From: Tautonia rosea
GTDB taxonomy: Bacteria; Planctomycetota; Planctomycetia; Isosphaerales; Isosphaeraceae
NCBI RefSeq assembly: GCF_012958305.1
Contig: NZ_JABBYO010000008.1
Span: 1-64,000, forward strand
Direction: 5' to 3'
Length of the DNA stretch: 64,000 nucleotides
Shown: one piece after another, positions 8,968 to 56,971 of the stretch
Layout: the number at the start of each line of letters is the position of its first letter
How positions within the stretch are numbered: the first letter of the stretch is position 1
The notes under the pieces: model-generated
Seen by the model: only the letters and a program-made list of their open reading frames with translations
The model's database searches: none
What the model was told of the DNA's origin: nothing
Translations under genes and position numbers: made by a program

Positions 8968-9612
8968 ATGGAAACAGGCTGTCGGGATCTCCTGGAGTTT
9001 GCGGGGGAGAACCGGTTTCGGACGGTGCTGGCAGACCCGCCTTGGCAGTTTCAGAATCGGACGGGAAAGGTGGCGCCGGAGCATCGGAGGCTGAACCGGT
9101 ATGAGACCATGACCCTGGACGAGATTGCAGCCCTACCGGTGGATCAGGTGGTGGAGGAGCCGGCACATCTGTATTTGTGGGTGCCGAATGCGCTTTTGCC
9201 GGACGGCTTGAGGGTGATGCAGGCGTGGGGGTTTCGGTACAAAGGGAACCTCGTCTGGCACAAAGTCCGCAAGGACGGGGGGAGCGACGGGCGGGGGGTC
9301 GGGTTTTACTTTCGGAATGTGACGGAGCTGCTCCTGTTCGGCGTTCGAGGCCGAAGCGCGAGGACGAGAGAGGCGGGCAGGCGGCAGGTCAACCTGTTTG
9401 CATCGCGGAAGCAGGAACATAGCCGGAAGCCGGACCATCAGTATGCGATCATCGAGTCGTGTTCGAGTGGTCCGTATCTGGAATTGTTCGCGCGAGGAAC
9501 CCGGGCGGGCTGGTCGAGCTGGGGACTCCAGGCGGTTGCGGGGTACGAACCGACCTGGCCAACCTATGCCGATCATTCCGGATCGAACGGAAAGGCCGCG
9601 GGCCAGGGGTGA
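8968..9612 (+). CDS. MT-A70 family N6-adenine DNA methyltransferase (orphan)
   Basis: Catalytic motif IV DPPW in TVLADPPWQF. The MT-A70 fold continues through HLYLWVPNALL...GFRY...VWHK. No restriction endonuclease gene is adjacent. Confidence 0.7.
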   Translation: METGCRDLLEFAGENRFRTVLADPPWQFQNRTGKVAPEHRRLNRYETMTLDEIAALPVDQVVEEPAHLYLWVPNALLPDGLRVMQAWGFRYKGNLVWHKVRKDGGSDGRGVGFYFRNVTELLLFGVRGRSARTREAGRRQVNLFASRKQEHSRKPDHQYAIIESCSSGPYLELFARGTRAGWSSWGLQAVAGYEPTWPTYADHSGSNGKAAGQG

Positions 9613-9773
9613 AATGGAGGAGCGTGCTGGGCGTTGTGCGTTTGCAATTTTTTTCTGTTGACGATGGTGGAGGATCGCCCGTACGATCAGGAGACGTGGT
9701 GATGGGAGGTCAGGCGAGCTGACTTCATCCACGTTTTCTTTAATTTGAATCACGAGCGATCGACGTGATCCTG

Positions 9774-9860
9774 ATGCAGACGCCCTCCATTCTCCTGCTG
9801 CTGGGCCTTCGACTGAGCCTGGCACTCGGCCTGTTGCTTACGGGCCGGGTGGGGGAGTAG
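9774..9860 (+). CDS. candidate leu leader peptide, 28 aa with 11 Leu
   Basis: ATG at 9774 to TAG at 9860 encodes MQTPSILLLLGLRLSLALGLLLTGRVGE. It lies between an upstream gene and leuA, and the terminator hairpin follows 43 nt after the stop. Confidence 0.35.
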   Translation: MQTPSILLLLGLRLSLALGLLLTGRVGE

Positions 9861-9902
9861 GGAGCGTCGTCGGAACGAGTCGCACAGGACACGAGACTCG
9901 AC

Positions 9903-9948
9903 GAAGCCCCGAGACCCACCCGGCCGGTGGATCTCGGGGCTTTTTTTT
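9903..9948 (+). terminator. rho-independent terminator / putative leuA attenuator
   Basis: GAAGCCCCGAGAcccacccggccggtggaTCTCGGGGCTT followed by T9, about 100 nt upstream of the leuA start codon. Confidence 0.7.
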
Positions 9949-10046
9949 TGCGTTCTCGCATCGCCCTTTGGTTCGGTTCGATCGACCCCGCCGGCCGTTG
10001 ATCGTTTCAACACACTCCGAGCACGACGAGAGAGGATAGGCCCCCC

Positions 10047-11621
10047 ATGGCCGACGACGCACGTATCCGGATCTTCGACACCACGCTCCGCGACGGCGAG
10101 CAATCGCCCGGCGCGAGCATGACCCACGCCGAGAAGCTGGAACTGGCCCGGGCGCTGGCCGACCTGGGGGTCGATATTATCGAGGCCGGGTTCCCGATCG
10201 CCTCGGTCGGCGACTTCGAGGCCGTGCGGGCCATCGCCACCGAGGTGGCCGGGCCGACGATCTGTGCCCTGGCCCGCTGCAATGATCGGGACATCGACCG
10301 GGCGTGGGAGGCGATTCGGTTCGCCCAGAACGGGCGCATCCACGTCTTTCTCGCCACGTCGGCCATTCACCGCGAGCACAAGCTGCGGATGACCACCGAG
10401 CAGATCATTGACCGGGCCGTGGCCGGGGTGAAGCGCGCGGCCGGCTACTGCGCCGACGTCGAGTTCAGCCCCGAGGACGCGGCGAGGACTGAGATCGACT
10501 TCCTGTGCGCGGTGGTCGAGGCGGCAATCGACGCCGGGGCGACCACGGTGAACATCCCTGATACGGTCGGATACGCCACTCCTCTGCAGTTTGCCAAGGT
10601 GATCCGGACGCTGAAGGAACGAGTGCCGAACATTGAGAAGGCGATCATCAGCGTGCACTGTCATGATGACCTGGGGATGGCCGTGGCCAATAGCCTGGCG
10701 GGGGTGGAGGCTGGGGCAAGGCAGGTCGAGTGCACGATCAACGGGATCGGCGAGCGGGCCGGGAACGCGGCGCTCGAAGAAATTGTGATGGCCCTGAAGA
10801 CCCGGAAGGATGTGTACGGGGTCGAAACCGGGGTGAAGACCGAGCGGCTTTTCCCGACGAGTCGGTTGCTGACCACGATCACCGGGCTGGCCGTGCAGCG
10901 GAACAAGGCGATCGTGGGGCGCAATGCGTTCGCCCACGAGTCGGGCATCCATCAAGACGGCATGCTGAAAGAACGATCGACGTATGAAATCATGAGGCCC
11001 GAGGAGGTCGGCGTACCGAAGACCGACCTGGTGCTGGGGAAGCACTCGGGCCGGCATGCGTTGAAGGACCGGGCGGTGGAGCTGGGCTTCCACCTGACCG
11101 AGGAGCAGCTCAACGCGCTGTTCGAGGACTTCAAGGCGCTGGCCGACAAGAAGAAGGAGGTCTACGACGAGGACCTCGCGATCCTGATCGAGAAGCAGAT
11201 CGGGGATGACGTGCCCAAAGCCTGGGAGCTGATCAGCGTGCAGACGACGACCGGCACGCACACCCTGCCGACGGCGACCGTTTGCATTCGCAACCCGGCC
11301 GGGGAGATTGTGCAGGACGCGGCGATCGGCGCCGGGCCAGTCGACGCGATCTTCAAGGCGGTCGAGCGCGTGACCGGGGTGCGTGCCTCACTGCACGACT
11401 TCGCGATTCGGAGCGTCTCGCGCGGGAAAGACGCCCAGGGCGAGGTGACGCTCGAACTGGCGGTTGAGAGCGACGCGCACGACTTCCGCGGCCGGGCGGC
11501 CTCGACTGATATCATCGAGGCCAGCGCACTCGCTTATATCAATGCTGTCAACGCCATTGCCTCGCGCCGCCAGCGCGGTCGGGTGCGAGAGGTTGCCGGC
11601 AGGCCAGGCGCGGGGGCCTGA
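10047..11621 (+). CDS. leuA: 2-isopropylmalate synthase
   Basis: N-terminus RIFDTTLRDGEQSPGASMT plus the HxH metal site (SVHCHDDLGMAVANSL) and a C-terminal LeuA dimerisation/regulatory domain. 524 aa. Confidence 0.9.
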   Translation: MADDARIRIFDTTLRDGEQSPGASMTHAEKLELARALADLGVDIIEAGFPIASVGDFEAVRAIATEVAGPTICALARCNDRDIDRAWEAIRFAQNGRIHVFLATSAIHREHKLRMTTEQIIDRAVAGVKRAAGYCADVEFSPEDAARTEIDFLCAVVEAAIDAGATTVNIPDTVGYATPLQFAKVIRTLKERVPNIEKAIISVHCHDDLGMAVANSLAGVEAGARQVECTINGIGERAGNAALEEIVMALKTRKDVYGVETGVKTERLFPTSRLLTTITGLAVQRNKAIVGRNAFAHESGIHQDGMLKERSTYEIMRPEEVGVPKTDLVLGKHSGRHALKDRAVELGFHLTEEQLNALFEDFKALADKKKEVYDEDLAILIEKQIGDDVPKAWELISVQTTTGTHTLPTATVCIRNPAGEIVQDAAIGAGPVDAIFKAVERVTGVRASLHDFAIRSVSRGKDAQGEVTLELAVESDAHDFRGRAASTDIIEASALAYINAVNAIASRRQRGRVREVAGRPGAGA

Positions 11622-56278: not shown

Positions 56279-56971
56279 TTGAGACCCATGACGCGCCGAT
56301 CGAATCTGTTCGCCCTGGGTGCCTGGCTTGTTGCCATGGCCCTTGCGGCCGTACCCGCTTCTGCCGACACACCCGCCGCCGCGTGCGCCCTAAATCAAGG
56401 GGCAGCGAAGGCTTGCTGCGCCACCGATGTGAAGGTCACGCTTACCTCCACCACTGTCACTGAAGCCAAGGCTTGCTGCGCCGACGCCAAGGCTTGCTGC
56501 GCCGAGGCTAAGGCTGCCGAAGCCAAGACCTGCGACGCCTCATGCTGCAAGGATCAAGACGCCTGCAAGGCTTGCTGTGCCGACGCCTGCGCCTCCTGCT
56601 GCGACGCCGCAAAGAAGGCCGCTGAAGCCAAGGCTTGCTGCGCCGACGCCAAGGCTTGCTGTGCCGAGGCCAAGGCTTGCTGCGCCGACGCCAAGGCCTG
56701 CTGTGCCGAGGCTAAGGCTGCCGAAGCCAAGACCTGCGACGCCTCATGCTGCAAGGATCAAGACGCCTGCAAGGCTTGCTGTGCCGACGCCTGCGCCTCC
56801 TGCTGCGACGCCGCAAAGAAGGCCGCTGAAGCCAAGGCTTGCTGCGCCGACGCCAAGGCTTGCTGTGCCGAGGCCAAGGCTTGCTGCGCCGACGCCAAGG
56901 CTTGCTGTGCCGAGGCTAAGGCTTGCTGTGCCGACGCCAAGGCCTGCTGCGCTGCAACGAAGGCGTCGTGA
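56279..56971 (+). CDS. signal-peptide cysteine-rich heptad-repeat protein (about 60 Cys), candidate metal-binding/storage protein
   Basis: TAT-like signal MTRRSNLFALGAWLVAMALAAVPASA (T-R-R-x-x-L-F). The body is almost entirely KACCADAKACCAEA heptads plus TCDASCCKDQDACKACCADACASCCDAAKK blocks. Confidence 0.6.
   Translation: MRPMTRRSNLFALGAWLVAMALAAVPASADTPAAACALNQGAAKACCATDVKVTLTSTTVTEAKACCADAKACCAEAKAAEAKTCDASCCKDQDACKACCADACASCCDAAKKAAEAKACCADAKACCAEAKACCADAKACCAEAKAAEAKTCDASCCKDQDACKACCADACASCCDAAKKAAEAKACCADAKACCAEAKACCADAKACCAEAKACCADAKACCAATKAS
56440..56945 (+). repeat. intragenic tandem repeats: 21-nt (7-aa) units nested in a duplication of about 250 nt
   Basis: gccaaggcttgctgcgccgac / gccaaggcttgctgtgccgag units. 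The large segment aaggctgccgaagccaagacctgcgacgcctcatgctgcaaggatcaagacgcctgcaaggcttgctgtgccgacgcctgcgcctcctgctgcgacgccgcaaagaaggccgctgaagcc occurs twice. Confidence 0.85.

Follow-up and report, generated by a model that had tools for sequence, protein, structure and literature searches.

Does a planctomycete control its leuA gene by translating a leucine-rich leader peptide ahead of it? The question is raised by a locus of Tautonia rosea (Isosphaeraceae; assembly GCF_012958305.1, contig NZ_JABBYO010000008.1), of which positions 1 to 64,000 of the forward strand were analysed; this whole stretch of 64,000 nucleotides (nt) is referred to as the window. A preliminary description made from the sequence alone had pointed to a leucine (Leu)-rich open reading frame (ORF) and a terminator hairpin directly upstream of leuA and had read them as classical leader-peptide attenuation. 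That reading is supported by four pairing regions in the leader RNA, a predicted promoter of its own, and conservation in relatives. The element is probably a classical ribosome-mediated transcription attenuator through which leuA responds to charged tRNA-Leu.

The leader ORF occupies positions 9774-9860 on the plus strand (ATG at 9774, TAG at 9858-9860) and encodes the 28-codon peptide MQTPSILLLLGLRLSLALGLLLTGRVGE; an in-frame GTG at 9765 provides an alternative start, and homologous ORFs occur in 17 relatives. The sequence confirms the composition first described, with 11 Leu among the 28 residues (codons 7-10, 12, 14, 16, 18, 20, 21, and 22), four of them consecutive. The Leu-codon zone, where ribosomes are proposed to stall, spans 9792-9839 on the same strand. 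It begins with CTC CTG CTG CTG at 9792-9803, continues with seven more Leu codons, and contains the conserved motif CCUUCGACU, read as Leu-Arg(CGA)-Leu, at 9805-9813. The six frames of the window contain 446 ATG-initiated ORFs of 12-45 codons, of which this is the densest in Leu (8 per 12 codons) and the only one to carry a Leu run of at least four. Leu accounts for 39% of its codons, compared with 10.1% in the long genes of the window.

Downstream of the ORF, folding together with covariation in 17 relatives defines an intrinsic terminator on the plus strand, with a hairpin at 9903-9943 and a U9 tract at 9940-9948. The GC stem with an inner hairpin followed by T9 was correctly recognized at the outset; it measures 12 base pairs (bp) in the outer stem and 5 bp in the inner stem (GAAGCCCCGAGA.CCACC...GGUGG.UCUCGGGGCUUU), with a folding energy of about -31 kcal/mol. 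No other terminator-like site on either strand of the 64-kilobase window is as stable (-29.6 kcal/mol; second best, -19.9 kcal/mol). The stem begins 43-45 nt past the leader stop codon, and 98 nt separate the end of the T9 tract from the leuA ATG at 10047; the distances originally given, 43 and 100 nt, are thus right within 2 nt. Both the Leu content of the ORF and the strength of the hairpin exceed chance for a background of 65% GC.

The informative fold of the leader is that of the nascent transcript ending before the 3' arm of the terminator, which replaced equilibrium folding of the complete leader. Such folding recovers an antiterminator that excludes the terminator, a structure that the preliminary description had proposed to look for. 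Positions 9840-9873 pair with 9898-9928 (-52.1 kcal/mol) through the helices GGCCGGGUGGG/CCCACCCGGCC, GGG/CCC, and CGUCGUCG/CGACGA. The 5' strand of this structure (region 2; 9840-9873, plus strand) includes the leader stop codon UAG at 9858-9860, and its 3' strand (region 3; 9898-9928, plus strand) takes up the whole terminator 5' arm (9903-9920) together with the loop. Hence, a ribosome terminating at the stop codon would block the antiterminator.

The Leu codons pair with the same strand. When no ribosome is modelled, the Leu-codon region at 9787-9835 (region 1) pairs with 9840-9861 at -40.7 kcal/mol. The core of this 1:2 structure, which acts as the predicted anti-antiterminator, is a conserved hairpin within the ORF at 9824-9850 (plus strand; ACUCGGCCUGU / ACGGGCCGGGU), from which the pairing extends over 9787-9861. 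Beside the 1:2 structure and the antiterminator, the terminator (3:4) has an energy of -31.6 kcal/mol. The outcome of folding also depends on where a ribosome is placed. With a modelled ribosome at Leu codons 9-16, RNA up to 9925-9930 folds as the antiterminator (-49 to -60 kcal/mol); on Leu codons 20-22, it leaves only the inner part of the antiterminator (-22 to -29 kcal/mol); and on the stop codon, it makes antiterminator formation impossible. By these models, the leader of the window has the three pairings known from classical attenuators (1:2, 2:3, and 3:4).

From these elements, a mechanism can be proposed. Transcription would begin at a dedicated promoter, whose -10 box ends at 9687, and a ribosome would translate the leader of 28 codons. 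With ample Leu-tRNA, it would reach the UAG at 9858-9860 and cover roughly 9843-9873, the 5' strand of the antiterminator. With this strand covered, the terminator at 9903-9943 and its U9 tract would form, and the polymerase would stop short of leuA, releasing a leader RNA of about 250 nt. Under a shortage of Leu-tRNA, the ribosome would stall in the Leu codons at 9792-9839, masking region 1 and leaving region 2 free. Region 2 could then pair with 9898-9928 once this segment is transcribed and pre-empt the terminator 5' arm, allowing the polymerase to continue into leuA. In the absence of translation, the Leu-codon region would pair with region 2, and the 1:2 structure would lead to termination.

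The predicted promoter lies upstream of the ORF, at 9658-9687 on the plus strand. A consensus scan identifies it as a sigma70-like sequence (TTGACG-18 nt-TACGAT), from which transcription is predicted to start near 9694. Its position between the upstream MT-A70 methyltransferase gene (8968-9612, plus strand) and the leader suggests that the leader is likely its own transcription unit. An equivalent promoter (TTGACn-N16-18-TAnnAT) is present in 17 of 18 Isosphaeraceae-type relatives, 34-115 nt 5' of the leader ATG. The downstream gene, leuA, extends over 10047-11621 on the plus strand and encodes a 2-isopropylmalate synthase (TIGR00973, 745 bits with a cut-off of 598.7; LeuA_dimer domain). It appears to be monocistronic, and the gene that follows encodes a phytase-like protein.

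Comparative evidence was drawn from 160 loci, recovered by scans anchored on LeuA that covered metagenomes and one genome per species. The nearest LeuA proteins, 75-81% identical to that of the window, belong to Isosphaeraceae and to similar metagenomic contigs. Of this Isosphaeraceae type, 17 non-redundant leaders can be aligned with the window over their full length (alignment A1), and the window shares with them the promoter, the ORF and its frame, the Leu positions, the antiterminator, and the terminator. The Leu-rich ORF 5' of leuA is therefore conserved, as the preliminary description had proposed to check: in these 17 relatives in the form seen here, and across Planctomycetota in a simpler form.

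The consensus leader peptide reads M-R-S-x-L-A-x-L-R-L-x-L-x-L-G-L-x-G-R-x-x-S. Four Leu positions are kept in 16 of the 17 sequences, each through two to five synonymous codons, which points to selection on decoding instead of RNA sequence. The CCUUCGACU motif (Leu-Arg-Leu) is nearly invariant; wherever Arg is present at this point (14 sequences), its codon is CGA, and the adjoining Leu codons vary synonymously. The same motif is present in a Gemmata leader (L031, about 2835-2845).

Structural conservation follows the same pattern. The terminator helix is 96% paired in the alignment, and its seven compensatory pairs are matched by none of 500 shuffles. The consensus antiterminator pairs GGCG.GGUCUUAGGGUUCG with CGAAGCCCCGAGACCCGCC and includes the stop codon; it is 83% paired, compared with 25-54% in shifted registers, and its five covarying pairs are reached by 8 of 500 shuffles. 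When a ribosome is placed at the stop codon, its footprint covers a strand that captures 60% or more of the terminator arm in 13 of 16 leaders, whereas shuffles would give 1.8 leaders. The core helix of the 1:2 structure (CUCGGCC/GGCCGGG) is family-wide, predicted by RNAalifold, and 75% paired. Only this core is conserved in the family; the extended 1:2 pairing of the window is not. In many Isosphaeraceae-type relatives (among them L084, L098, L101, L103, L104, and L105), the strong covarying terminator hairpin is followed only by a broken U-tract such as CUUCUCCCAUUU or CUUCGUGUGUUUC. Such tracts, set against the perfect U9 of the window, bear on the efficiency of intrinsic termination in those relatives.

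A covariance model built from 15 relatives with the window left out (R1) provides an independent view of the locus. It matches the window at 9771-9952, directly 5' of leuA, over model positions 1-159 of 159 (104.4 bits, E 5.8e-24), and this is the sole significant plus-strand match in the window. The window also departs from its relatives in several respects. Its peptide is the most Leu-rich, with 11 Leu and an LLLL run, compared with 5-9 mostly alternating Leu in the other Isosphaeraceae-type leaders. The loop of its 1:2 hairpin carries a 6-nt insertion, its 5' untranslated region (UTR) an extra hairpin, and its U9 tract is perfect. It also lacks the GGAG that can be read from the sequences of most relatives 6-10 nt ahead of the leader ATG; this GGAG and the synonymous variation at the conserved Leu codons lend indirect support to translation of the leader ORF.

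Beyond the Isosphaeraceae, an automated criterion was applied, defined as an ATG-initiated ORF in which 12 codons include 6 or more Leu and whose stop codon lies at most 110 nt from a terminator. Such an arrangement was found in 62 of 120 leuA upstream regions and in 4 of 1952 control windows of the same loci. Combined with R1, it returned 37 of the 53 genomes labelled Planctomycetota (about 70% of the sample), compared with 2 of 22 others. In planctomycete lineages, leuA can be preceded by a simple leader; one example is MATLNLLRLLLLALRERRP, with a hairpin and U6-7 about 35 nt beyond it. The taxa concerned are Pirellulales, Planctomycetaceae, Thermoguttaceae, Gemmataceae (Gemmata algarum and a Gemmata metagenome-assembled genome), and Phycisphaerae, together with two Verrucomicrobiota. 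The upstream strand of the antiterminator again lies under a ribosome at the stop codon in 38 of 48 further leaders, against 11.2 expected, and none of 20000 simulations reaches 38. Full-length R1 matches of 16-38 bits occur just upstream of leuA in many Pirellulales, Planctomycetaceae, and Gemmataceae loci. Given these full-length matches, which are always located 5' of leuA, the family appears to be homologous across the phylum. Among the 26 Pirellulales-type leaders (alignment A3), terminator covariation is significant, and support for the 2:3 pairing came from per-sequence folding against shuffles in place of covariation.

Two observations concern the edges of this distribution. The Verrucomicrobiota loci L062 (2781-2912) and L080 (2809-2933) carry leader ORFs with Leu runs (MKPLLSVLELLLLGLTRPVGHPRMR and MIRSGLLRRLLLLLLLEG, respectively) and a terminator 5' of leuA, and R1 fails to detect either leader; they may reflect either ancestry shared across the Planctomycetes-Verrucomicrobia-Chlamydiae (PVC) group or convergence. 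A full-length R1 match is also found at L049 (2812-2954), a locus labelled "uncultured Alcaligenaceae" whose LeuA is 62% identical to that of the window. This contig may be mis-binned planctomycete DNA.

The wider genomic context bears on a simpler explanation, in which a chance ORF lies beside a constitutive terminator or insulator serving to stop transcripts from the MT-A70 gene. This gene is on the same strand, and the only signal directly after it, just before the leader promoter, is a weak terminator-like hairpin with T7 at 9620-9653. Yet the promoter that separates the gene from the leader is conserved, and neither MT-A70 nor the phytase-like neighbour is found at any of the 160 related loci, where the ORF and terminator persist. 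The absence of both flanking genes from loci that have the leader indicates that the leader travels with leuA, and the strong terminator is not that of the methyltransferase gene, a concern already voiced in the preliminary description. Given also the first rank of the ORF for Leu density and the enrichment of similar arrangements upstream of leuA, the comparative data effectively refute a chance association, which we regard as the least probable of the explanations considered.

The same data bear on the possibility that the ORF encodes a functional small hydrophobic peptide of the membrane, with its own promoter and terminator, and that its proximity to leuA is incidental. The peptide is indeed hydrophobic and transmembrane-like, the ORF is conserved, and promoter and strong terminator are both in place. 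Across the phylum, however, its length ranges from 14 to 30 residues, and its sequence varies freely except in Leu content and where the ORF encodes RNA helices. Moreover, the element is always found directly 5' of leuA in the same orientation, regardless of the genes around it, and the conserved alternative pairing between the 3' end of the ORF and the terminator arm would serve no purpose in a peptide gene. A membrane peptide is thus very unlikely to be what has been conserved.

Several results weigh against classical attenuation and need to be set beside the evidence in its favour. In equilibrium folding of the full-length leader, the terminator is present in every minimum-free-energy structure under all ribosome masks. 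Because equilibrium always favours the terminator, the switch must be kinetic. A truncated-transcript test sequesters only 9 of 17 terminator-arm bases in the window, a score explained by the outer antiterminator helix, which requires the terminator loop. The registers of the window's own antiterminator and 1:2 structure, when imposed on alignment A1, show pairing and covariation not above shuffles, since the relatives use a slightly different register. Covariation of the antiterminator is modest in that alignment as well. The per-sequence antiterminator energies differ weakly from those of shuffles (mean z -1.3), as GC-rich shuffles pair well too. In the 26 Pirellulales-type leaders, covariation of the 1:2 and 2:3 helices is not above shuffles, which is attributable to poorly aligning spacers.

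Features of the window leader itself belong to the same group. Its Leu codons are the common CTG and CTC and not rare ones, and no clear Shine-Dalgarno sequence was seen before its ATG, unlike in most relatives. Its -10 box and ATG are 86 nt apart, compared with mostly 34-52 nt in relatives (115 nt in one), and the hairpin at 9690-9741 in the 5' UTR is an insertion of about 45 nt that the relatives do not have. This window-specific hairpin, at the 5' end of the predicted leader RNA on the plus strand (GGAGACGUGG...CCACGUUUUC, followed by the U-rich UUUUCUUUAAUUU), could be a stabilizing 5'-end stem-loop or a second terminator-like signal. Furthermore, we infer translation of the ORF, stalling at the Leu codons, the kinetic choice between hairpins, termination, and read-through, all five, from the arrangement of the leader.

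A further set of observations leaves room for a different regulator. The terminator and antiterminator could form a real switch that is set by an RNA-binding protein, a small molecule, the overall translation rate, or guanosine tetraphosphate (ppGpp), with the Leu-rich ORF playing a secondary part. Many relatives have only 5-7 dispersed Leu codons, along with degenerate U-tracts. The CCUUCGACU motif, nearly invariant and with its Arg always CGA, is unpaired in the consensus structure and falls outside the classical model; no pairing partner for it was found by eye or with RNAalifold. In actinobacteria, Seliverstov et al. (2005, PMC1262725) considered classical attenuation unlikely for the LEU element upstream of leuA, and according to the summary in that article, the attenuator-like leaders of Streptomyces leuA and ilvB behaved in a non-classical manner when their Leu codons were mutated. 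Against such a switch, Leu is the sole amino acid consistently enriched in the leaders, and it is kept through synonymous codons. In 13 of 16 and in 38 of 48 leaders, the antiterminator strand contains the stop codon, an arrangement that makes sense only if the position of the ribosome matters. The leaders also contain no large conserved unpaired core of the riboswitch type, and the Rfam comparison gave no riboswitch or T-box match. Control by another factor is accordingly unlikely, and we retain a ribosome-mediated attenuator as the preferred reading.

Other features of these loci extend the picture without deciding the mechanism. A tRNA-Leu(UAA) gene lies 13-360 nt 3' of leuA on the same strand at about ten loci of Pirellulales, Planctomycetaceae, and Thermoguttaceae. 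These genes are located at L015 4682-4766, L022 4622-4706, L023 4577-4662, L026 4598-4681, L027 4538-4622, L028 4645-4729, L041 4554-4641, L047 4638-4725, L153 1573-1657, and L147 2078-2164. They may be co-transcribed with leuA and hence be under the leucine attenuator. A tRNA scan found no tRNA genes in the window. Elsewhere in the window, two identical small ORFs (MLQGSRRLQGLLCRRLRLLLRRRKEGR) at 56542-56625 and 56746-56829 lie 204 nt apart, which points to a direct DNA repeat in this region.

If the attenuator operates as proposed, its distribution has consequences beyond a single genus. The family proposed for Planctomycetota is represented in Isosphaeraceae, Gemmataceae (including Gemmata), Pirellulales, Planctomycetaceae, Thermoguttaceae, and Phycisphaerae, and similar leaders are seen in Verrucomicrobiota. 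For the mechanism to work, a ribosome must be no more than about 100 nt from the polymerase, and conservation of the mechanism would therefore be genetic evidence of transcription-translation coupling. The combined proposition that this leuA leader is an ancient, homologous, and uncatalogued family across the phylum, and that its conservation testifies to coupling even in Gemmata, has in our estimate an even chance of being correct. That transcription is spatially separate from translation has been claimed for Gemmata (Gottshall et al. 2014, as cited in PMC6212462 and PMC5394234). An attenuator in Gemmata and its relatives would, if real, contribute an independent genetic argument to this dispute, and the leader could serve as a compact reporter for coupling in planctomycetes. 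In addition, R1 and the alignments define an RNA family that can be annotated, and the leader would mark leuA as the leucine-controlled step in the metabolic annotation of these genomes.

How the element relates to known systems was addressed through databases and the literature. A cmscan search of 9400-10200 (E <= 10) gave no match to the Rfam families Leu_leader (RF00512), Leu-Phe leader (RF01743), or T-box (RF00230), and none of these three matched at gathering score in 19 related loci. Five other matches in the same region, including EBV sisRNA-2, Xanthomonas asX2, and F6, were rejected as chance matches; one of them displayed the antiterminator pairing. The full-text literature search, which did not cover the survey of Lopatovskaya et al. 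(2010), found no description of leucine attenuation in planctomycetes. Together with Rfam 15, this result is consistent with the initial impression that such a system is undescribed in Planctomycetota. Firmicutes have joined since 2010 the phyla in which leader-peptide attenuation is known. A statement from that year restricted demonstrated cases to Proteobacteria and Actinobacteria (PMC2965389).

The actinobacterial LEU element offers a precedent in a high-GC organism, as it is also a leuA-specific 5' leader with an upstream ORF and a run of Leu codons. There, a pseudoknot joins the run of Leu codons to the leuA Shine-Dalgarno box, and no obvious terminator is present (PMC1262725). The window, in contrast, has a canonical hairpin with U9 98 nt 5' of the leuA ATG, and its alternative pairing involves the terminator arm. 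The partner of its Leu codons is region 2, which lies about 200 nt away from the leuA ribosome-binding site, so that the pairing characteristic of the LEU element is absent.

Leader attenuators of branched-chain amino acid genes have been reported for Lactococcus (leu/phe, RF01743), Staphylococcus aureus (ilv-leu, PMC5794164), and Corynebacterium (the upstream ORF of ilvB-II, PMC10272879). They resemble the window in having an upstream ORF rich in branched-chain codons followed by antiterminator and terminator stems. Their sequences are unrelated, however, and they control ilv or ilv-leu operons and often sense several branched-chain amino acids, whereas the leader of the window is specific to Leu and to leuA.

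The enterobacterial leu leader is the obvious functional counterpart. Escherichia coli leuL contains four consecutive Leu codons, as does the leader of the window, and uses the rare codon CUA where the window uses the common CTG and CTC. The two leaders otherwise differ in host phylum and share no homology of sequence or structure (RF00512). The peptide of the window is longer, with 28 codons and 11 Leu spread over 16 codons, and the leader controls a single leuA in place of the leuABCD operon. Attenuation of this kind is a textbook mechanism; the novelty lies in a phylum-wide leuA leader absent from Rfam. In its general architecture, this leader corresponds to leuL and to the trp, his, thr, phe, and ilv attenuators, with a short ORF rich in cognate codons, mutually exclusive 1:2, 2:3, and 3:4 pairings predicted from folding, a stop codon at region 2, and a terminator placed before the first biosynthetic gene.

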